Numbered from the stretch's first letter, positions 1 to 9,939 are shown. The stretch is DNA of 28,538 nt from Planctomycetota bacterium (GCA_035528775.1 DATKYA010000295.1:1-28538); one strand, 5' to 3'. Notes: generated by a model from the letters alone, not told the origin. Numbers and translations are program-made.

Positions 1-271
1 CGGCCGGGAAGGTGCAGAGTACCTGCGAGATCTTGCCGTAGGGCCGCACGAGGCACACGGCAGATCTGCCGGGACCGGGGAAGCTGAGGCCGGTCATGAT
101 CGGCAGCCGGGCGGTGTGGCCGTCGCGGCGCACGCCGAACACCTGCGTGGTCATGATCTTCTCGCGCTGCGAGTCGGGCCCGCGGCCCGTCACGTTGCCG
201 TAGGCGGCCACGTTGTAGCTGAGGTCGCGGTTGCCCAGGATGATGTCCGGCTGTTCCAGCCAGACGATCAG
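1..271 (-). CDS. Start-less coding fragment running off the window edge; probable native C-terminal part of the GH42-like protein at 4738-8188
   Basis: The minus frame reads FLIVWLEQPDIILGNRDLSYNVAAYGNVTGRGPDSQREKIMTTQVFGVRRDGHTARLPIMTGLSFPGPGRSAVCLVRPYGKISQVLCTFPA with almost all codons ending in G/C. Immediately upstream (above 272) the codons become A/T-ending and there is no RBS+ATG. Not in the supplied ORF track. Confidence 0.65.
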   Translation of the reverse strand, partial: MIVWLEQPDIILGNRDLSYNVAAYGNVTGRGPDSQREKIMTTQVFGVRRDGHTARLPIMTGLSFPGPGRSAVCLVRPYGKISQVLCTFPA

Positions 272-389
272 GAATGAGTGAGCAAGGAGCGTAAACGCTG
301 TAGAATGAACAAGGACGGGTTTTGGGCGAGGGACAATGGCGGCAATGCCCAGCTCATTCTCTTTCGGCCTGACCCCGGAGGCGACGCCC

Positions 390-420
390 GAGTGGCGGCG
401 CGCAAAGCGCGCTGTCACTC
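390..420 (-). terminator. GC-rich hairpin at the end of the SPFH/HEAT unit (possible terminator)
   Basis: GAGTG...GCGCGC-AAA-GCGCGC...CACTC; overlaps the TGA at 415-417; no clear U-tract. Confidence 0.3.
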
Positions 421-1124
421 GGCGCTTCCACCGGATTGTTGGCCGTCGGCCATTGTTCTTTGCTTTCCGTTCGCGATAACCCTCCACTGTCTTACGTCAG
501 GATCCCAGACCAATTGATCCCCGACTTCGTCATACCACTTTCGGTAGACAAGCCAATAGGAGCAACTGTATTTGTCATACGGGTCAGGTGCGATGGGTCT
601 TGGCTGGATGTCATCCGAAACAGAGAAGTTCACTGTGGTCAGTGCCTCAGTGCGGCAGTCGGAGTTGGCTTCGTTGAGGCAGTCAATGAGGCTCTGAAGC
701 GGCCTCCCTGCGCCCGGATGAAGCCAAGGCCTGGGACGCCAGCCGTTGCGTGTTGCGGTCACTGCTGTTGCTCACTAATTCGGCGAGGAGTTCAATATGA
801 GCAGCAGGCACTGACTCCTGAGGGCACTGGGCAATACGCTGACCAAGCAGTCGGATCAGGGCTGACGTCTCCGTCTTGCTCGCCTTGGGGGTCTGCCATA
901 GTGATCTACAGACAATCTCGAGGTTATCGGCAAGTAGCAGCTTCTGCTCGGCCTCGACCCTCACTCGCTGCTGGCCCTGCGAGTCGGTGCACTGTCGGAC
1001 CCACGCCACAAGCTGATCTTCCGTTGAGACGGAGGTCTGCAGGCGCCCGACCCGGCAGACTGTGACTCCGAGCACCTAACCCAGCCCAGCGGCCAAGGAA
1101 CGCAACGAATCGTGAACTAGTCAC
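415..1124 (-). pseudogene. Frameshifted HEAT-repeat-like exported protein (ORFs 924-1124, 683-1075 and 415-762 are probably one gene)
   Basis: ...LASQALASSGRREA (ORF 683-1075) joins LQSLIDCLNEANSDCRTEAL...YWLVYRKWYDEVGDQLVWDP (ORF 415-762) by removing one base near 700. A hydrophobic N-terminus MTSSRFVAFLGRWAGL+VLGVTVC forms by removing one base near 1076. 710 nt minus 2 = 236 codons. GC looks lower than in the flanking genes. Confidence 0.5.
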
Positions 1125-1134
1125 CGCTTGACTC

Positions 1135-2658
1135 TCAGTCTTGTTCTTCCTTTTCCGTCGTCTGCTGCAATACTTTCTTCGCGCCCAGCTCGACCATGCT
1201 GGCGTTGCTGTTGGTCCAGAAGGTACCGTCGCCGCTGTATCGGTATTCTATATCGATATCCTCCGGGAGGCTCTCGGCGAAGGTTGCGAGGTTGTACTGT
1301 TCGGCACCCCCGTAGGCGTGGATCAGGAGTTCCAGGCGGGTGGCCTCGGCCCTTTTCTTAGCTTCGATGACGTCGGCTTCAGCCTGGCCGAGGGTCCTCA
1401 CGATCTGCGCGTCGATCTCGGCGGTGCTCTTCTTGAGGCCGGCGACGGTGCGGTCGGCTCCCGCCCTGATCTCGGCGGCCCGTTTCACGCCCAGCTCGCG
1501 CTCTTCCTGGACGAGCGCCTGAGTTTCGGCGTTGAAATCCTTGATGGCAATGTCGACCATGCGCTCAGCTTTTTCGAGCTGTGCGGCGACGGTGTCGCGC
1601 TCCTGCTCGAACTTGAGGGTGATTTTCTCTTCCTCGGCTATCATCCGGGCCTGAATGGTGGCTTTGATGTCTTCGTCTGGGTGGAACCCGCGCACAAGTG
1701 CGATGAGGAAGTTTATTCCCTTTTCCTCGCCCATTTCCTTGAGGGCCTCGGTCGCCTCCTGCTGGAATCTTTCGCGTGTGGTTCCCTCAATAAACTGCTG
1801 GGTGGTGAGGTTTGACCCGGCGTTTTTGCAGATACTGAGAACCTGCGGTTCGATGACTTTCGACTCCACCATTCCCACGGTCCCGTATTTGCGGATGATG
1901 CGCGGCGCGTTTTCGGGAAAGATGCCCCAGACCACTGTGAAGTCGAGGTGCATCTGCTTGCCGTCGGCTAAGGGGAACGATACCCCGGAGCCTTCCACGA
2001 TGTGCTGGACTGTTGTGCCTTCGATATTGACGTTCTCGTATTCGGTTGCGATGTCCCACACACGGTAGCCCACTTCCACGCGATCGACCCTGATCTTTTC
2101 CGGATTGATGTTGTAGTACCCGGAGGTGAGGACGGTGTCGAGTACGCCCTTGCCTTTACCTTCGCGGAGCGTTTGCACGCCCACATAGCCCGGGGGGATG
2201 ATGGTTGCTTTTGTGAGCTGTAGCTTGCCGGGGGACGCTTCGATGATCTTCTGGCCGAATCTGTTGATCCGCCAGGCGCCGGGGGTGAGCACAGCTTCCT
2301 GCAGGCCTTTCTCGTCGGGGCCGGCCAGAAAACGGCCGGGCGGCAGGTCTTTGCCGATGTTGTTCTTGACGAGGAGAATCTCGCCTGCCGGGATGAGAAC
2401 GTCTCTGACCTCTTCGACGTCGTAGGTCCATGGATTGAGATCCAGATAGCGGCCCGGCCCGCGAAGCTGCTCCATCACCCCTTTTTCGCCTTTCTCAGCA
2501 TATTGGCCTGTGGGCGCGTCCTTGCCGGTCTTTCGAGACACTTGCAGGGAATAGCCGTAGGGGCACCATTTGTAGCAGAATATCCAATTCCACACGAACA
2601 TTCCGACGAAGATGAGGATTACGATCGCGGGTATCGCGAGAACGATTTTCATTTTCAT
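1135..2658 (-). CDS. SPFH/Band 7 family membrane protein (507 aa): N-terminal TM helix, three repeated beta modules, SPFH domain, coiled coil
   Basis: GGAG RBS upstream of ATG; TM segment IVLAIPAIVILIFVGMFVWNWIF; three GxKG...LxPGxY/W..NP modules; SPFH-like FPLADGKQMHLDFTVVWGI...IEPQVLSICKNAGS; Ala/Glu/Lys-rich helical tail. Confidence 0.85.
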   Translation of the reverse strand: MKMKIVLAIPAIVILIFVGMFVWNWIFCYKWCPYGYSLQVSRKTGKDAPTGQYAEKGEKGVMEQLRGPGRYLDLNPWTYDVEEVRDVLIPAGEILLVKNNIGKDLPPGRFLAGPDEKGLQEAVLTPGAWRINRFGQKIIEASPGKLQLTKATIIPPGYVGVQTLREGKGKGVLDTVLTSGYYNINPEKIRVDRVEVGYRVWDIATEYENVNIEGTTVQHIVEGSGVSFPLADGKQMHLDFTVVWGIFPENAPRIIRKYGTVGMVESKVIEPQVLSICKNAGSNLTTQQFIEGTTRERFQQEATEALKEMGEEKGINFLIALVRGFHPDEDIKATIQARMIAEEEKITLKFEQERDTVAAQLEKAERMVDIAIKDFNAETQALVQEERELGVKRAAEIRAGADRTVAGLKKSTAEIDAQIVRTLGQAEADVIEAKKRAEATRLELLIHAYGGAEQYNLATFAESLPEDIDIEYRYSGDGTFWTNSNASMVELGAKKVLQQTTEKEEQD

Positions 2659-2739
2659 ATTCTATCTCCAGTCCTGGATCGTGGTTTTGATTTCGCATCA
2701 ACGCACGTAGGCGAGGCTTGGTCTGCGCCCCACCGTTCC

Positions 2740-4440
2740 TCATTTCTCAGCTTTCGAGGCTTCTTCGTCCTCATCGTCGAGCGATGCAAACCGTTCGAAC
2801 AGACTCGCAAACGGGCCCTCTGTATTGGAGAGGATTCTGTGTATGCCCGGCGAGAGCTTCTTGATGAACTGGTATTCCGCGTACTTGTCGCCGGTCTCGA
2901 ATGCCGTGACCTTGGCTTTCACGGCCTCGGCCTCAGCTTGGTTTTTCATCACGGTTACGGCGGCTTCGGCCGTTCCGGCCTCCCGCACTTGAGCGGCTTT
3001 GTCCTTTGCCGCCTCCAGCATGATTTCGGCCACGGCCAGGTCCTTCTCGGCCTTGGTCACCTCGACGGCCCTGTACTGCTCGCCGGCCCTGACTTCCGTG
3101 GCGACCATTTCGCGGATTCCGCCGCGCTGCATCTCGCGGTCCTTGCTACGCTCCTGTATGACCTTCGCCAGGCGGCCGCCTTCCCGGATGGGCTCGCCGT
3201 TATCGTCCAGCTTGGGCGTACCGCCCTCGATGATCGGTTTGCCGCGCTCATCGAGCACCGGTTTGCCGTCCTCGTCCAGCTTGGGCGTGCCGCCTTCCAT
3301 GGCAATGGTGCCGATCTGGGTCTCTATCTCCTTCTCATACTGGTCAATCTCTCGCCTCGAGATTTCGCGCCTGCCGTACTGCTGGCGGATCACGGGGGGC
3401 GGCTCGGTGGCGCGGATCACGAAGGACCTTATCAGTACGCCCTCGGCCGCGCACGATTCCCGCAGCCGGCGCTCAACTTCGTTTTGGACCTTGATGCGCG
3501 TGTCGCCCCTTATGTAGTCTACTGCGCGGTGCTGCCCGCCGATGGTCCTGAAGTACGACCGCGCGAAAGGCAGGATCAACTTGCGCTGGATGTTGTCTAT
3601 CCCGCCCGATTTCTTCAGGTCCTGGTCATCCACGTATTTCACGAACAGCTCCGGCAGCTTTTCGATGTCGGGCGCCCATTCGATGACGCCCTCAACCTTG
3701 ATGCCGAAACCGTACTTGGAGAGAAACGTGACGCCATACTCGTCCCTCATCTCGAACTTCTGGGAGCGGACGTCGATGGCCGTGACCATGTGAACGTGCC
3801 TGTTCGAGTACTGCGGGTGAGTTCCTGGCGGGAGCAACTGGGGCTGGGTGCCACGCTCGCCTTCCTTTACTACAAACTCATTGGGGTTTTCCGGCCAATC
3901 GCCCACCTTGAGCGTTACCACACCCATGAAACCGGGCTCGATTTTCACCATGGGAACCTCTTCCACGTCGAAGGCCCAGAGGTTGATGTAGTACCGCCCA
4001 GGTGTCAGCGGCTCGGCCAGAATGCCCTTTTCATCCTTATCCCTGGCGATAACGTCTCCCAGCGGGAGCGGCTTGCCGTACTTGCGGATCAGGATCCCCA
4101 CTTCCGCCTGATCTATGACAGTCGCCTTGATCGGCTTGGGCCACGACCAGTAATAGGGGTTGCGGAAGTGCCGCCCTTCGCGCAGGATCTCTAACTGCGG
4201 ACCGCTGAACTCCGGGTCCGGCGCCAGGATCATGTCGTTGGTCAGGTTCTTGCCGGTCTTGTGCAACAGCGGCACAAACTCGCCCTTGTCGACCTGTATC
4301 CTGCAGAAAGACCAAAAGTAAACGGCTACGACAAACACAATAGCAGCGATGGCGGCCACCACGGTCTTCGCAATAGAGCCCGAGTCGAAGCCATACCCGT
4401 TGCCCCTGTCGCCGCTTCCCGCATCATAACGATCAATCAT
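2740..4440 (-). CDS. SPFH/Band 7 family membrane protein (566 aa), paralog of the downstream SPFH gene
   Basis: Start moved from the track's 4680 to the ATG at 4440 (AGGAGG RBS). TM segment IAKTVVAAIAAIVFVVAVYFWSF; three repeated modules ending LxPGRY/H..NP; SPFH-like FLSKYGFGIKVEGVIEW...FARSYFRTIGG; coiled-coil tail AEAAVTVMKNQAEAEAVKAKV. Confidence 0.85.
   Translation of the reverse strand: MIDRYDAGSGDRGNGYGFDSGSIAKTVVAAIAAIVFVVAVYFWSFCRIQVDKGEFVPLLHKTGKNLTNDMILAPDPEFSGPQLEILREGRHFRNPYYWSWPKPIKATVIDQAEVGILIRKYGKPLPLGDVIARDKDEKGILAEPLTPGRYYINLWAFDVEEVPMVKIEPGFMGVVTLKVGDWPENPNEFVVKEGERGTQPQLLPPGTHPQYSNRHVHMVTAIDVRSQKFEMRDEYGVTFLSKYGFGIKVEGVIEWAPDIEKLPELFVKYVDDQDLKKSGGIDNIQRKLILPFARSYFRTIGGQHRAVDYIRGDTRIKVQNEVERRLRESCAAEGVLIRSFVIRATEPPPVIRQQYGRREISRREIDQYEKEIETQIGTIAMEGGTPKLDEDGKPVLDERGKPIIEGGTPKLDDNGEPIREGGRLAKVIQERSKDREMQRGGIREMVATEVRAGEQYRAVEVTKAEKDLAVAEIMLEAAKDKAAQVREAGTAEAAVTVMKNQAEAEAVKAKVTAFETGDKYAEYQFIKKLSPGIHRILSNTEGPFASLFERFASLDDEDEEASKAEK
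3184..3300 (-). repeat. Intragenic duplication encoding EGGTPKLD(E/D)xGxP twice and three LDxxGxP units
   Basis: DNA repeat TCGTCCAGCTTGGGCGT(A/G)CCGCC at 3203-3225 and 3272-3294, 69 nt apart; protein MEGGTPKLDEDGKPVLDERGKPIIEGGTPKLDDNGEPIREGG. Confidence 0.85.
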
Positions 4441-4596
4441 GTCTTTTCCTCCTGAAACCAAATGAAAACGTCGAGCTACCTGCGGCGCTCGCCCTGCAGT
4501 CAGTAAGGGTGATCGGCTGCCCGGGACAGATCCTTTGCGTTCGGCAGCCGCCGCAGCCCCGTCTGATACACCCCACGGGCGATGAAACGCGCGCAC

Positions 4597-4625
4597 ATGA
4601 TACAACATTCCCCTTCGGAAGTCAA
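4597..4625 (-). promoter_or_regulatory. Sigma70-type promoter for the SPFH operon
   Basis: Minus strand TTGACT (4625-4620), 17-nt spacer, TATCAT (4602-4597), about 155 nt upstream of the ATG at 4440. Confidence 0.7.
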
Positions 4626-4737
4626 GCATAACCCGAAGGAATTGGCCCTGCGCGGGTACATCGTGACCCACCCCCTGCATCGCTGAGGTGCAGCGGTGAC
4701 AAATCAGGAAAGAGATTGCGTGAGGCCTTGCGGCCGT

Positions 4738-4968
4738 TCATTCCGAGCACTTGCTCTGCAACCTGTTCCGAACGTAGATCAGGTCGAGAATGTTGACCGC
4801 GCAATCGTCATTGTAATCACCCGGCAGCCGCCAGCCGTATTGGGCAAGTACCGTGTGCCGGTCGCCCATCGTCACCTCCAGTTCATTGAACGGACTGCCT
4901 TCGCTCAGAATGACCGGCACGTTGTCCACCACCCAGAACTCGAAGTAGTACGTCTTCCCGCCGATGCC
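4738..4968 (-). other. Beta-rich linker module plus single-loop dockerin-like tail fused in frame to the GH42-like ORF
   Basis: GIGGKTYYFEFWVVDNVP...HTVLAQYGWRLPGDYNDDCAVNILDLIYVRNRLQSKCSE; the last part matches the dockerin at 15630-15806 (GDVNYDGIVNILDLIFVRGRL / INIMDLIYLRTRLTNTCP). Confidence 0.75.
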
Positions 4969-7900
4969 GAACGAGTTTCCCATCCGGTGGCCCACGCCGG
5001 CCGTGCCGAAGCCGATTCGCGGGGCGTTGCGGGTGATCCGCGCTTCCTTTCCGAAGGCCTTGCGAATCGCCTCCGCCAGCTTCCGGGCCGCCGGCATGAA
5101 CGTGGGCTGCTCGGCGCTGATCGAGATGCCCTCCGGCCCGCGCTCCGCCAGGAACTCGATGATCTGCTTTTCGCCGATGACGACGTGCTCGCGCGGCTTC
5201 TCCCTGCCGGCTGCAATCTTCTTCACGGCCTCGCACACCTGTTCGTCGCTCAGCCCGCCGTGCACGCGGTTGCCCTCGTACAGGCGGATCACGCCATCGG
5301 TGGACAACGCCAGCATGCGCGCCATCGACGGTTCGATCATCGTCTGCAGCGTCAGCGAGCCGCCCTTCTTCTCGAACGGCACCGCACAACCCAGCGAGAT
5401 ATCGTAGATGCCGGTCACGTCGCCGCGGTCCACCTGGATGGCGAGTTGCTTGCTGCTCATTTCGAGCTCAAGCGTGCCGGGTGCAGGCCGTAGGCGCCCT
5501 CGCGGTTGAACACTTCCATGTACGTGTTGGTGTTATCGGGGCCGCGCCGGAAGATCAATTCCACCGAGCGCGGCGGCGTGGCACGGTACCAGAAGTAGTC
5601 GCGGTAGCGCTGCGTGCTGCGCGGCCAGGTGCCTTCCGCGTAGGCGGCGTCGTACGTTGACGATCGCGGGCATTCTTCGTCGATCACCCTGCCTTCGTTG
5701 TTGAACTGCACCTTCTGGAACAGCATCTCCACCCACCGGAAAATCCCCTGCTGGAAAACCGAGCCTTGCGGCGCGTGCGGCCAGTTGCTGCCGTAGTGCT
5801 GCCAGTAGACCAGCGACAGGAACGACTCGCGACCGACGGGGTACCCGATGGCGACGGCCTGCCCCTTGCCGAATGTGTTGCGAACGACGGCCGGCTTGCC
5901 GTCGCCGCTGTAGACTTCGAGCACCTCGGCGCCGTCCCGCGGCTTGAACGTGCAGAACAGTGTTTGCATGGTGTCGGCGGCGGTGTCGCGGTAGCGCTTG
6001 TCCGGCTGCCACACACCTTCCGGGCCGTCCTTGCGGGGCGAGGTGAGGGGCGAGTGCGCCACCGTCGCGCGCCCGATGAACGACTCGAAGTCCGCCCCGA
6101 GCACGTCGGCGAGCTGGCCCGGCATGCGGGCGTCCATGTTCTCGTCGTGGATCGCCGCGGCGCTCGTGGCGATGAGGATGCCGCCGTTCGACACGAACTG
6201 CCGGATCTTCTCCGCCACGTCTGCCGGCAGCGCCTGCACGGCCGGCATCACCAGCATCTGGCAGGCACTCAATCCGCCCGCGCGGATCTGCTCCTCGGTG
6301 AGCATGTCCTGGCTGAGGCCGATCGAATCAAGAATCCGCCCCCAGCCGATGCAGCCGATCTTGTTGTAGTTTGCCGGGCCAACGTTGAAGCCGTACGTGC
6401 CGCCCACATAGTCGCTGATGAACGACTGGAACTTGCCGGACGTATCGGACAGCAGCAATGCGACCTGCGGCGCCGGCCGGGTGTTGAGCATCTCGGGGGC
6501 CATGCCCTGCGCGCGCTCGTGGAACCGGCGCCAGCCCAGCAGCGAGCTGAATTCCCACCGGAGATCGTAGTAGAACACCTGCTCGCCCCAGATGAACCCG
6601 CGCACCTGCGGCAGCGAGAACAGCGTGAGCGTGTCGTGGGCGTAGCCGCTCATCGCGTACTGCGAGTATGCATCGCCCGCGCCCGCGTGTGTAAACGCGA
6701 TCGAGTAATGGCTCGGCGAGTAGGCACGGCGCAGGTTGTCCCAGATGTTCTCCAGCGAGAAGCCGAGCGGGATCAGCCCCAGCTCGCGGATCAGCCGCTC
6801 GTTGTTGCGGCCGGTCATCGCTTCGTTGGCCTCGGCCACTTCCGATGAGAACGAGCACAGGGGCAGGCCGCGGTCGATCTCGCGCAGTGCCTGCACCTGC
6901 GGACGCAGATAGTCGATATACTCCTGCTCGCGCCAGCAGACGAGGTCGATCATCATTCGTTTCTGCCCGGGATCGGCGGTGCCGGCGGTCTGGAGTTTTT
7001 CGGGGATGATCGCGCCCGACGCGTCGAACTGTGCGCCCCAGCGTGCCCGCGGGTCGATCTTGTTTTCCGCCAGCCATCGGCGGAACCGGGCCGTCGCCTG
7101 CTCGCCTGCGCACCACGGCAGGGTGGAATCAAGCTCCACAGCCAGGATTCGCACGCCGGCGTCGCGCAGCCGCCGCACGAGCGCCTGGGCGTACCGGCCA
7201 AACGCCTCCGCCACCTCGCCGTCGAACATGTTCATCGGGGTGCGCTCCGGCTTTGCCGACACCTGGCTGAACGCGAAGGCGTCGCCCCGCCGCCGGTTCT
7301 CGGTGATCGGCTTGCCGTCCGGCCCCACGAGGACGGCGCGGTCCCCGATCCGCTGCCGCAGCCAGTCGGACGGGCTGTCGGAGAACGACAGCAGGGGCAG
7401 GATCAGCCCGAGATCGTGCTGCACGACCATGCTGGCGGCTTCGTCGATCTTCGACCAGTCGTACTTCCCCGGCTCGGTCTCGACGACCGACCAGTCGAAC
7501 AGGTCGGCGTCGTACGGGCGGATGAAGCTGACGCCGGCCTCCTGCGCCTGCTTCAGCAGCCAGTCGGGCGGGTATCCGTGCAGGTTCAGCACGTGAAGGT
7601 AAGCCTGGGGGCGGATGGCGATGCACCAGCCGAGCTCGAAGCCGTCGCCCACGGCGTTGCGGATGGACGGCGGCACGTCGGGATAACTGGCCGCGGGCAG
7701 CGTCTGCAGCCGGAACGGCGCCTTGGCGGCCGCCGCTTCGTTCACGGCGGAAATCGCGTCCTTCAGCATACGCCGCGTCTTCTCGTAGAATACCGCGGTG
7801 CGGGCCGCCGCCTCCGGGATGAACCCGCGGAACGCATCCAGCTCCTCTTGCAGGTTCGGGTGCTCCTTCGCACTCGAATACGAATGCAGGGAAGCGGATG

Positions 7901-8188
7901 TCACGTCCATCGTGTAGAGGTAATCGAACAGCCACGTGCCTTCGAGGTGGACGTCCTCCGCGATGGCTTCCGGCTGTCGAGTGCGAAGCCTCGGCCGTAG
8001 GTGAAGACGGTCTTCAGATCCTGTGCGTTCTTGACGGCCCGCATGGCGAGCGTGCGGCACTGGTCAAACTGCTCGAGCGCGCGGGACACCTCAGGCCGCA
8101 GGTCATCGGCGCCGGCCGAGGAACCGCCGGCCATCATCATCAGCGCGATCGCCGGAAGCACGAACCCGAAATGCACGGTGCGTTTCAT
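4738..8188 (-). CDS. Secreted GH42-like (clan GH-A fold) protein with beta-galactosidase trimerisation-like domain; two -1 frameshifts (about 7972 and 5480); ends in a dockerin-like tail
   Basis: Signal peptide MKRTVHFGFVLPAIALMMMAGGSSAGA from the ATG at 8188. FDWSVVETEPGKYDWSKID is typical of GH42/GH35-like barrels. RPAPQVALLLS...MLVMPAVQALPADVAEKIRQFVSNGGILIAT resembles the trimerisation domain. ORFs 7901-8344, 5457-8060 and 4738-5460 join by adding one base each in the plus-strand G runs at 7972-7973 and 5479-5481 (3451+2 nt = 1151 codons). Confidence 0.75.
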
Positions 8189-8273
8189 CCCGTTCCCCTG
8201 AGGCGGACAAGCCGCAGCCAAGAAAGAATGCCACGAAGATACGAAGGAAACGCACGAAGAAGACGAATGATGG

Positions 8274-8370
8274 GATGAAGAGAACGATGAAGGATGAACG
8301 ATGAACGGACGACACCGAGCGGATGGCTGGCTTCTTCCGTTCATCGTTCATCGTTCATCGTTTATCCTTC
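8274..8370. repeat. Heptamer (GATGAAC)n palindromic REP-like element; likely terminates the large operon
   Basis: Perfect 17-bp inverted repeat GATGAACGATGAACGGA (8293-8309) / TCCGTTCATCGTTCATC (8336-8352), with further degenerate heptamers on both arms; one arm supplies the last codons and the stop of the YdjY-domain gene. Confidence 0.8.
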
Positions 8371-9350
8371 AGCTCGGGTGCAGGCTTTTCGGCCTTCTTC
8401 GTGCCCGGCGTGATGATCAGCACGACCGGCGTGCCTTTCGGTGGGGCCGTCTTCTTGTTCACGATGTAAACCGTGTCGTCGCCGCCGCTGGCCAGCGGAT
8501 TGTCGATCACCGACAGCGGGTCGTGGAAGACGGTGACGATGGATTTGTCCCGGTTGGCCATGTAGTAGTCGTTGCCCTGGTCGTCCTTGGCGAACTTGGA
8601 GCCGATGAACACCCACTCGATGTGCTCCATCGACGTGTTCTTCTTCGTGTCGAACATCAGGTCTTCGGCGCGCTTGCGGATGGTCTTGCCGTTTTCCTCC
8701 CACTGCACTTCGATGATGACGGGATCGCCGAAGGGGATGGCGGGATCGCCCTGGTATTCGGGCCCGCCGCCGGGCTTGAGACCCAGGAGCAGCAGAGAGA
8801 GGTGCAACTGCCATGCTTCGCCGCGGATGGCGACCAGGCTTTCGTATTCCTTGCCGCCCTCGGCGCAGGCAAACAGCTCCAACTGGCCTTCGTCCAGGCA
8901 GATTTTGCCGTCCACCTCGATGGTCTTCTTTTCCTTGTCGAGGCGGATGGCCTTCGGGTCGGGCTTGTTCTGCTTGTCGAGTGCGGCAGCGGGGTCGGCG
9001 CTGGCGGGATCGGCTTTCGTGGCCTGATCCGTGCCGCTGCCGGGCTCCTCGCCGGCAACAGCCGTGAAGCTCAACACCAAGCAGACGAGCAGTGCCGCGA
9101 TGAGAGCAGGTGTGGAAAGCAGTAGCAGCCCGTGTAGGGGCGGACTTCCGACAATCGAGTCTTCGAGATTGGCGGAATCGTCCGCCCATCTGGATGCCTT
9201 ATGGGGCTGGCGGTCAACAAAGCCTTCGCACGGTCGGGCGGACGATTGGCGACGACCGAGGCGGTCGTCCGAAGACTCGCCAAGTCCGCCCCTACGTCCT
9301 CGGTCGATACATTTCAAACACGCGATGCGGCGGATTCTATGAATACCCAT
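8355..9350 (-). CDS. Exported YdjY-domain protein (PVC type)
   Basis: Core LELFACAEGGKEYESLV...LHLSLLLLGLKPG...EWVFIGSKF...PPKGTPVVLIITP is recognisable as the YdjY domain. Start placed at ATG 9350 (GGAG RBS; in frame, 332 codons) because no other ATG precedes the hydrophobic signal ALIAALLVCLVLSFTAVA. Confidence 0.75.
   Translation of the reverse strand: MGIHRIRRIACLKCIDRGRRGGLGESSDDRLGRRQSSARPCEGFVDRQPHKASRWADDSANLEDSIVGSPPLHGLLLLSTPALIAALLVCLVLSFTAVAGEEPGSGTDQATKADPASADPAAALDKQNKPDPKAIRLDKEKKTIEVDGKICLDEGQLELFACAEGGKEYESLVAIRGEAWQLHLSLLLLGLKPGGGPEYQGDPAIPFGDPVIIEVQWEENGKTIRKRAEDLMFDTKKNTSMEHIEWVFIGSKFAKDDQGNDYYMANRDKSIVTVFHDPLSVIDNPLASGGDDTVYIVNKKTAPPKGTPVVLIITPGTKKAEKPAPELKDKR
9134..9295. 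repeat. 162-bp nested palindrome (GTAG-type REP doublet / REPIN- or MITE-like)
   Basis: Terminal inverted repeat GTAGGGGCGGACTT (9134-9147) / AAGTCCGCCCCTAC (9282-9295); inner pairs CGAGTCTTCG (9156-9165)/CGAAGACTCG (9270-9279) and AATCGTCCGCCC (9176-9187)/GGGCGGACGATT (9236-9247). Confidence 0.85.
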
Positions 9351-9459: not shown

Positions 9460-9939
9460 TCACCAGTCCCGCCATCGGGCGCCCGGCACCTGCGGGCCTT
9501 TCGGGATTGGTGCCGAGAACGCAATCTCGGCGTAGCCCACCTTTATGCAGGAGTTGAGCACCTGCAGCACGTAGTTGTACTGTGCTCTCGGGTCGGGGTC
9601 GATCGTCACGGGCTGATCCGCGTTGATCCCGTACAGCACCAGGAGCTTCTGCTCGAGGTCGGCGACGGTCGGATACTCGGTATCGCCGAGCTTGTAGACC
9701 GGCTTGGTGTGCCCGGGCTTCATCATCACGCGGATCACCAGTTCTTCCTCGGGCTCGAAGCTGGGCACGTTAAGGGGGTTGGGGCCGCGATCCTTCGGAA
9801 GGAAGGCATTGAGCCTGCCAGCCGGCTCCTTGAACTTCGTGCCGAGCAGGAAGAAGATGAGCAGCAGGAAGGTGACGTCGATCATGGACGTCATCTGCAT
9901 CTCGATTTCGGAGCTGCTTGCGAGGCGGCGTCTTTTCAT
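9460..9939 (-). CDS. exbD: ExbD/TolR family biopolymer transport protein
   Basis: TM motif QMTSMIDVTFLLLIFF with the conserved Asp; C-terminal VTIDPDPRAQYNYVLQVLNSCIKVGYAEIAF; TGATG overlap with the upstream exbD. Confidence 0.9.
   Translation of the reverse strand: MKRRRLASSSEIEMQMTSMIDVTFLLLIFFLLGTKFKEPAGRLNAFLPKDRGPNPLNVPSFEPEEELVIRVMMKPGHTKPVYKLGDTEYPTVADLEQKLLVLYGINADQPVTIDPDPRAQYNYVLQVLNSCIKVGYAEIAFSAPIPKGPQVPGARWRDW

Follow-up and report, generated by a model that had tools for sequence, protein, structure and literature searches.

A GH42-like gene of a soil planctomycete, interrupted by chromosomal DNA with an SPFH gene pair and probably being lost

The interrupted GH42-like gene

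The DNA analysed here (hereafter “the window”) is an entire contig, C295, of 28,538 nucleotides (nt), the longest of the 690 contigs in a metagenome-assembled genome (MAG; 3.66 Mb, 63.7% GC, completeness 77.5%, contamination 3%). Its host is an uncultured soil species of the Planctomycetota, Phycisphaerae-like going by the names of its homologs (Planctomycetes or Phycisphaerae), and the metagenomic runs that contain the window sequence derive from soil and sediment. At the start of the window, on the minus strand, lie the two parts of a gene for a protein that resembles glycoside hydrolases of family 42 (GH42); they are separated by a segment with a pair of SPFH/Band 7 genes, and the larger part ends in a dockerin-like repeat (Table 1). 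A first-pass annotation had offered three explanations: domain shuffling that tagged the enzyme with a dockerin, a programmed excision switch, or an assembly artefact. Comparison with intact alleles, paralogs and independent assemblies points to a different outcome: most probably, the segment was inserted recently by illegitimate recombination into a GH42-like gene that is now being lost, and the dockerin fusion is accidental.

Translation from the ATG at 8188 begins MKRTVHFGFVLPAIALMMMAGGSSAGA, and residues 17-73 of the ortholog L002 align to 8149-7976 in frame -2, while its remainder aligns in frame -1. The open reading frame (ORF) that contains the body of the gene, P0002, scores above the Pfam cut-off for the GH42 trimerisation domain (Glyco_hydro_42M, PF08532; 62.9 bits, cut-off 25.8) and below it for the catalytic domain (Glyco_hydro_42, PF02449; 16.8 bits, cut-off 21). 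The ortholog P0133 passes the cut-offs for both domains, with 33.5 bits for PF02449 over profile positions 19-82 only, and GH42 β-galactosidases of the PDB match at E-values of 2e-7 to 2e-3. P0002 shares 52-54% identity with its family orthologs, which are single ORFs of approximately 1,200 amino acids. It is followed by P0003 (5460-4738, minus strand, 240 amino acids), which overlaps P0002 by ATGA and reads ...GHRMGNSFGIGGKTYYFEFW... The first-pass annotation had taken 4738-8188 as one frame; the gene sits in three, separated by two frameshifts, and P0002 and P0003 are distinct ORFs. Its reading of the minus-strand frame as ...GHRMGNSF-GIGGKTYYFEFW..., ending in a dockerin-like repeat, agrees with the translation, and an orphan frame, ...SF-LIVWLEQPDIILGNRD..., does run off the window start.

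Table 1. Features of the interrupted gene and of the inserted segment, in minus-strand reading order (window coordinates).
Feature	Position	Strand	Basis or remark
GH42-like gene, 5' end: ATG at 8188, signal peptide, first ~70 codons	7976-8188	-	own frame
Frameshift 1: 1-nt deletion, polymorphic among strains	7974-7975	-	separates signal peptide from body
GH42-like gene, body	5485-7973	-	inside ORF P0002 (8060-5457, 867 aa)
Frameshift 2: C-run shortened by one (CCCC to CCC)	5481-5484	-	makes TGA stop 5459-5457, overlapping P0003's ATG
First part of the native C-terminal region, up to ...GHRMGNSFG (residues 1-165 of P0003)	4964-5460	-	nucleotide match to L014
Tail captured from another gene and joined in frame, comprising the second half of a B-repeat-like domain, a single dockerin-like repeat and the stop	4738-4963	-	homology to unrelated C-termini
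Intergenic DNA of the insert	4441-4737	-	one sigma-70-like promoter match (4625-4597); no third-position GC periodicity
SPFH/Band 7 gene 1, intact, 566 aa	2740-4440	-	Pfam Band_7
SPFH/Band 7 gene 2, intact, 507 aa	1135-2658	-	Pfam Band_7, 78.4 bits
Far end of the insert, 878 nt, no detectable gene	257-1134		no coding periodicity
Orphan frame (EQPDIILGNRD...) encoding the second half of the native C-terminal domain and running off the contig end	1-256	-	nucleotide match to intact alleles

Intact relatives, breakpoints and the inserted DNA

The two parts are joined in three intact alleles from related metagenome lineages (L014, which encodes P0007, L028 and L029; approximately 85-86% nucleotide identity to the window). 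The alignment of L014 consists of two blocks, window 5566-4964 and window 256-1, with 4 nt between them, and the alignments of L028 and L029 are alike. Nucleotide identity to L014 is approximately 85% over the N-terminal part of P0003 as far as 4964, and the orphan matches all three alleles at 85-88%, beginning precisely at 256. L029 encodes a full-length protein in a single ORF of 1,277 amino acids, and its downstream neighbour, the 3' end of a gene for an NPCBM-domain protein, is also found in L013, an insertion-bearing contig of a different MAG (GCA_035530255.1). Since the alleles are colinear and this neighbour is shared, the locus is syntenic, and window 257-4963 represents an insertion in place of 4 nt. 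Colinearity across the break extends to five paralogs in the window's own MAG (C413, C620, C561, C437 and C25; tblastn of the MAG), which pass from sequence like the N-terminal part of P0003 directly to orphan-type sequence (EPDIILGNRD ... LPxMT ... FPGxGR ...); in C413, this stretch and a GH42-like body lie in a single ORF of 981 amino acids. P0007 is 86% identical to the N-terminal part of P0003 and continues ...GNSFGMVEQPDIILGNRD... to the native C-terminus, and in L013 the orphan frame comprises 125 codons and is open as far as the native stop. The earlier proposal of a split native gene is borne out by these colinear homologs: in the native gene, the frame ending near 4964 continues into the orphan frame at 256-1.

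When 1.84 billion representative proteins were searched exhaustively with phmmer, the homologs of P0003 fell into two disjoint classes: long GH42-like proteins, which match residues 2 to approximately 166 and each carry at least 100 further native residues, and unrelated proteins, which match residues 162-240 only, at their extreme C-termini. The junction is spanned by just two proteins, P0006 and P0008, both from the window's species. Among these matches, no other member of the family bears the dockerin-like tail naturally. Homologs with a native KTYYFEFW-dockerin tail, which the first-pass annotation had named as evidence that would speak against an insertion, were not encountered in this search, and the fragment at 1-271 corresponds to the native C-terminus.

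The structure model of P0007 is of low overall confidence (mean predicted local distance difference test score, pLDDT, 50.9) and is confident at residues 130-180 and 300-327; only its confident α/β part was used. In this part, strands and helices alternate on either side of the join at approximately residue 200, and residues 126-200 form the first half of one α/β domain. Residues 126-327 align as one unit to single α/β domains (Z 8.5-11.3), namely an S-layer anchoring domain and the domains found at the N-terminus of GH115, GH67 and GH20 enzymes. Because the join falls inside this unit, the recipient domain is split, and the model suggests that the insertion cuts a single fold, the last α/β domain of the gene, midway.

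At the breakpoints, all three intact alleles read AAC TCG TTC GGA ATG GTC GAG CAG (NSF-GMV-EQPD). The N side of the window keeps ...TTC GGC AT before the donor sequence begins, and the C side picks up at GAA CAG, so that the breakpoints relative to the intact alleles lie at 4963/4964 and 256/257, with an insert of 4,707 nt and 4 target nt replaced. The first-pass annotation had instead placed the ends of a 4,697-bp excisable segment at two 8-mers, GAACGAGT at 4969-4976 and GAATGAGT at 272-279 (plus strand). Both are present and form an imperfect direct repeat, ACTC(G/A)TTC, near the two insert ends and in the same codon phase, but they are offset from the breakpoints that the intact alleles define. 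A match of seven in eight positions arises in 39% of random 41-nt window pairs, and the extended match of 11 in 15 positions arises in 11%; the repeat is at chance level, as the accompanying caution had allowed. A scan of 257-4963 with Pfam and NCBIfam profiles returned no transposase and, in agreement with the first-pass annotation, no recombinase, the only hits being the two Band_7 domains, and the small ORFs in 257-1134 and 4441-4680 gave no profile match better than E=0.026. No inverted repeat pairs the insert ends 257 and 4963, and the flanks contain no perfect target-site duplication. An inverted repeat close to one junction (272-285 and 768-781) was considered and set aside: ten inverted pairs were listed, chance alone would by our own estimate give approximately two to three 14-nt pairs in 5.6 kb, and this repeat has no further copies in the MAG.

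The MAG is fragmented, the window constitutes one of its contigs in full, and the orphan lies at the extreme end of this contig, features that would suit a chimera in which the assembler had joined DNA from different loci or organisms. This explanation, which had been raised at the outset, is rejected, since at least four independent assemblies carry the junctions, and it is the least probable of those considered. L013 is 99.45% identical to the window over 5,233 nt and includes both junctions. The ENA contig ERZ27256827 (30.6 kb; known from gene calls and protein sequences) spans the whole locus with the order ExbB/ExbD, YdjY, GH42-like gene, P0003, SPFH pair and orphan, and one of its proteins, P0008, is a frameshifted reading of window 5038-4886 that crosses the N-side junction. 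Among the Logan contigs examined from three soil runs (X1-X3) and a sediment run of 2024 (X6), both junctions are spanned in X1 (1-5574) and X3 (162-5511) and are covered in two pieces in X2 (1-4687 and 4658-5388), and X6 (4837-5071) covers the N-side junction. Moreover, any repeat shared by the junctions is too short to have misled an assembler.

The same runs gave two observations on strain structure. X1 and X3 contain two haplotypes over 5576-5756, with 4 and 18 differences per 181 nt, and in X1 their depths (13.8 and 5.6) add up to the depth of 19.6 of the single contig covering 1-5574, so that diverged strains may have in common a single, almost identical copy of the segment with the insertion. 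A loose end at 5565 in X1-X3 was considered as an alternative allele and proved spurious, its 30-mer matching a contig of an alphaproteobacterial MAG; the end of the intact contig L014 lies at 5566 as well.

The insert begins within a gene. Its first 76 codons are 72-74% identical in amino acid sequence to the extreme C-termini of P0010, P0011 and P0012 and 70% identical to the C-terminus of P0141, a β-helix protein with PF18998. At the DNA level, homology to the P0141 gene (L031) covers exactly 4964-4738 and ends at the stop codon; no SPFH genes lie downstream of that gene in L031, although it is the closest tail donor for which the gene context is available. In the tail homologs, the domain starts approximately 45 residues upstream of the join (...LTVLSAPIVDV...TLTAPESVS-GGKTYYFE...), and the last domain of the donor has therefore been cut in half. 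Similar tails are numerous elsewhere in the MAG. The Pfam dockerin profile PF00404 does not match P0003 at E<=0.01; a single DYNDDCAVNILDLIYVRNRL-type repeat is present, and in P0011, a close relative of the tail, the profile reaches 17.6 bits, below the cut-off of 22.9.

The two SPFH genes form a conserved two-gene unit across the class. Homologs of gene 1 show 60-70% identity across Planctomycetota/Phycisphaerae and are invariably paired with gene 2, which is 59-71% identical in relatives; the pair is single copy in the MAG. The ORF 4680-2740 probably overstates gene 1: homology to relatives begins at approximately residue 80-121, third-position GC bias is missing from the first 240 nt, and the gene callers on L013 and the ENA contig place the start at the Met at 4440. 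The far end of the insert (257-1134) has a lower GC content (55-59%) and 3 differences from L013. It matched no Rfam family and no Pfam profile better than E=0.026, and blastn and tblastx found no counterpart in the SPFH loci of relatives or in the rest of the MAG.

Further lesions and selection

The insertion is not the only damage to the gene. At frameshift 1, an extra A behind 7974 is present in runs X2 and X3 and absent from X1 and the window; it extends the ORF that starts at 8188 to 910 amino acids, as far as the stop at 5457. At frameshift 2, the intact allele L014 has CATCCCGGG, compared with CA-CCCGGC in the window, and L030, a JGI (Joint Genome Institute) contig of the same species (98.4% identical upstream), retains the full C-run (CACCCCGGC) and lacks this frameshift. 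No indel relative to the window was reported for X1-X3 at this site, and the ENA contig has the same 4-nt gene overlap. The Met codon of P0003 already lies within the continuous frame of L030, and the ATG is therefore not a start that arose newly after the split. Wherever an assembly includes the tail-bearing ORF as well as the GH42-like body, a frameshift lies between them.

Other strains carry lesions of their own. L030 lacks window 8321-5898, a deletion of 2,424 nt between imperfect 9-nt direct repeats, AAGCC(A/G)GCC (L030:2668-2679), which takes out the promoter-proximal two thirds of the GH42-like gene. In the ENA contig, the gene calls comprise 308 and 592 amino acids in one frame, implying a premature stop, and P0003 has an additional frameshift at approximately residue 144, before the tail. 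With one insertion and two frameshifts relative to intact homologs in the window, and independent lesions in conspecific strains (at 7974/7975, in the ENA contig and in L030), these shared and private lesions look like the signature of a gene that is being lost.

Two further features of the gene and its surroundings were noted. A dispersed, palindromic element resembling repetitive extragenic palindromic (REP) sequences, in which the heptamer GAACGAT is repeated, is located at 8270-8375, immediately upstream of the gene start; it has approximately 250 blastn matches over many contigs of the MAG and abuts the boundary of the L030 deletion. Its assignment to the Rfam family mir-6536, with matches on both strands well below threshold, was discarded as spurious. 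The intact allele L029 has an in-frame insertion of 225 nt (75 codons; L029:1278-1502) inside the GH42-like domain, equivalent to window position ~7061, which is homologous to the C-terminal periplasmic domain (residues 64-139) of the neighbouring exbD and approximately 48% identical in amino acid sequence to the ExbD of the window (9536-9675), with AAG-type microhomology at the joins. This piece would be a second capture of a gene fragment in the GH42-like gene and hints at template switching.

Selection on the two halves was compared with L014, at dS of approximately 0.52. dN/dS is 0.161 for the N-terminal part of P0003 and 0.164 for the orphan; because it is about 0.16 in both halves and the orphan is still open, the disruption is recent relative to the divergence from L014. 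Such low values are compatible with imported variation or with a function lost only very recently, and do not in themselves show relaxation. Other variants are also biased toward synonymous changes (25 synonymous to 11 non-synonymous among the runs, 15 to 10 relative to L030). In the SPFH genes, the window and L013 differ by nine non-synonymous and no synonymous changes, for which consensus artefacts, relaxed selection on a translocated copy or chance are possible explanations.

Origin of the interruption and its meaning

Taken together, these results are best explained as follows. A secreted GH42-like gene with a product of approximately 1,200-1,280 amino acids was broken in the middle of its last α/β domain by 4,707 bp of chromosomal DNA, a piece that extends from inside the last domain of an unrelated dockerin-tailed secreted-protein gene, through the SPFH pair, to approximately 0.9 kb of non-coding DNA. 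By chance, the join was in frame, leaving the upstream half to end in half a B-repeat-like domain and a single dockerin-like repeat and stranding the downstream half as an orphan ORF. The junctions, with an overlap of at most 1-2 nt, suggest illegitimate recombination by end joining or template switching. No Ku protein (PF02735) turned up in the MAG, of which 77.5% is complete; this leaves classical non-homologous end joining unsupported and is uninformative on the mechanism. The insertion is probably recent, the gene a pseudogene on its way to being lost, and the fusion with the dockerin-like repeat a by-product. The closest description is thus a pseudogene created by insertion of ordinary, non-mobile chromosomal DNA, with an accidental in-frame chimeric ORF. 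The present case resembles such pseudogenes in its intact colinear homologs, its blunt junction without target duplication and with 4 target nt lost, its captured piece that starts mid-gene, and its frameshifts, stop and deletion that differ among strains. It differs from them in that the insert holds two apparently functional, conserved SPFH genes, the only copy found in the MAG, in that the in-frame join yields a chimeric ORF, and in that the donor locus was not found.

Several observations weigh against this explanation. Neither the donor locus nor the original SPFH site was found, so that copying or moving of the insert is an inference: neither the insert nor the SPFH genes have a second copy in the MAG, and the SPFH pairs of relatives lack a preceding dockerin-tailed gene. 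An intact allele of the same species was sought and none was found above 86-89% identity, nor did a joint of this kind occur in contigs. The model on which the splitting of the recipient fold relies is of low overall confidence, the premature stop of the ENA strain is deduced from gene calls only, and L030 ends at window 5287, its coverage not reaching the insertion. Most importantly, the variation between the window and L013 does not resemble that of decaying DNA. A neutral pseudogene diverging after a shared insertion is expected to show mostly non-synonymous changes, but the gene halves differ at 13 positions in 753 nt, of which 11 are synonymous and 2 non-synonymous, and relaxed selection, i.e., dN/dS approaching 1, is not observed. 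These differences are also five times denser than those in the insert (16 in 4,707 nt). The synonymous bias is read here as recombination importing standing variation from intact alleles, or as very recent spread of the insert, which would be young and have accumulated few changes itself.

The same variation is one argument for a functional gene split, in which a truncated enzyme, the ATGA-coupled, dockerin-tailed P0003 and possibly the orphan ORF of 179 amino acids would be maintained by selection. In favor of this, the fusion in P0003 is in frame and open in both the window and L013, the start codon of P0003 overlaps the stop of the ORF before it, L013 and the ENA contig preserve the orphan ORF intact, and the upstream ORF of the X2/X3 allele is an open secreted protein. 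However, the donor and the recipient domain are both cut mid-fold; in the ENA strain, P0003 is frameshifted ahead of the tail and the enzyme body is broken; the window and X1 are frameshifted directly after the signal peptide; L030 has lost 2.4 kb of the gene; and the apparent start codon of P0003 predates the split. The synonymous bias can itself stem from recombination with intact alleles. A functional split is consequently considered improbable, and a small probability is kept for it because no intact allele of the same species was found. Slightly less credible still is the specific version in which three working parts are kept, i.e., the truncated enzyme, a coupled protein anchored by the dockerin-like repeat, and a separately expressed C-terminal half-domain. 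If it were true, the mostly synonymous variation would reflect ongoing constraint, and the locus would document gene fission and domain capture at the population level in an uncultured planctomycete. As to the related idea that the insertion tagged the enzyme with a dockerin, the insertion itself is supported, but domain shuffling is weakened by the mid-domain cuts, the frameshift before the tail and the independent lesions.

A programmed switch by excision, as known from the nifD element and skin, in which a recombinase acting in trans would restore the native enzyme in some cells, fares worse and is very unlikely. Some likeness exists: an element of kilobase scale divides a coding gene into two co-oriented parts, its two ends have a nearby imperfect direct repeat in matching codon phase, and the orphan half has not decayed. 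Developmentally excised elements include skin (within sigK), SPβ (within spsM) and the nifD, fdxN and hupL elements. Skin, SPβ and the nifD element carry their site-specific recombinase internally (spoIVCA in skin, sprA in SPβ), have an identical core at both ends (16 bp at the attachment sites of SPβ) and reconstitute a functional gene when excised (PMC4191935). The present segment, in contrast, has no internal recombinase, no phage-like genes and no identical or att-like core at its ends, its repeat being at chance level and off the true breakpoints. Joining at the 8-mers would indeed be in frame, as had been claimed, but it yields NSF-LIVWL-EQPD instead of the native NSF-GMV-EQPD, and the gene would still be frameshifted at 7974/7975 and ~5481, so that the product is neither native nor open. 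Excision would also delete the only copy of the SPFH pair found in the MAG. Finally, the contigs of runs X1, X2, X3 and X6, from which rare variants drop out, contain no joint between 257 and 4963, and no excised form was seen.

Two other kinds of arrangement were compared. Like an insertion sequence or composite transposon, a discrete segment interrupts an ORF, but here it lacks a transposase, terminal inverted repeats and a perfect target-site duplication. Like the dockerin-bearing glycoside hydrolases of cellulosomes, a GH-like gene ends in a dockerin-like, Ca-binding repeat; however, a type I dockerin consists of two tandem Ca-binding repeats of approximately 22 residues (PF00404), whereas P0003 has one repeat, placed after half a domain and without a Pfam dockerin hit, and a frameshift lies between the tail ORF and the enzyme body.

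The lesson for similar loci is that an imperfect 8-bp repeat at the junctions of a segment is no evidence for site-specific recombination. The appropriate annotation is a single disrupted GH42-like gene plus an orphan 3' fragment, and neither a dockerin-tagged enzyme nor an excision switch. Beyond annotation its importance is small: it provides a population-supported example of how an ordinary chromosomal segment may land in a gene and create an in-frame chimera, accompanied by parallel decay of the gene among strains.

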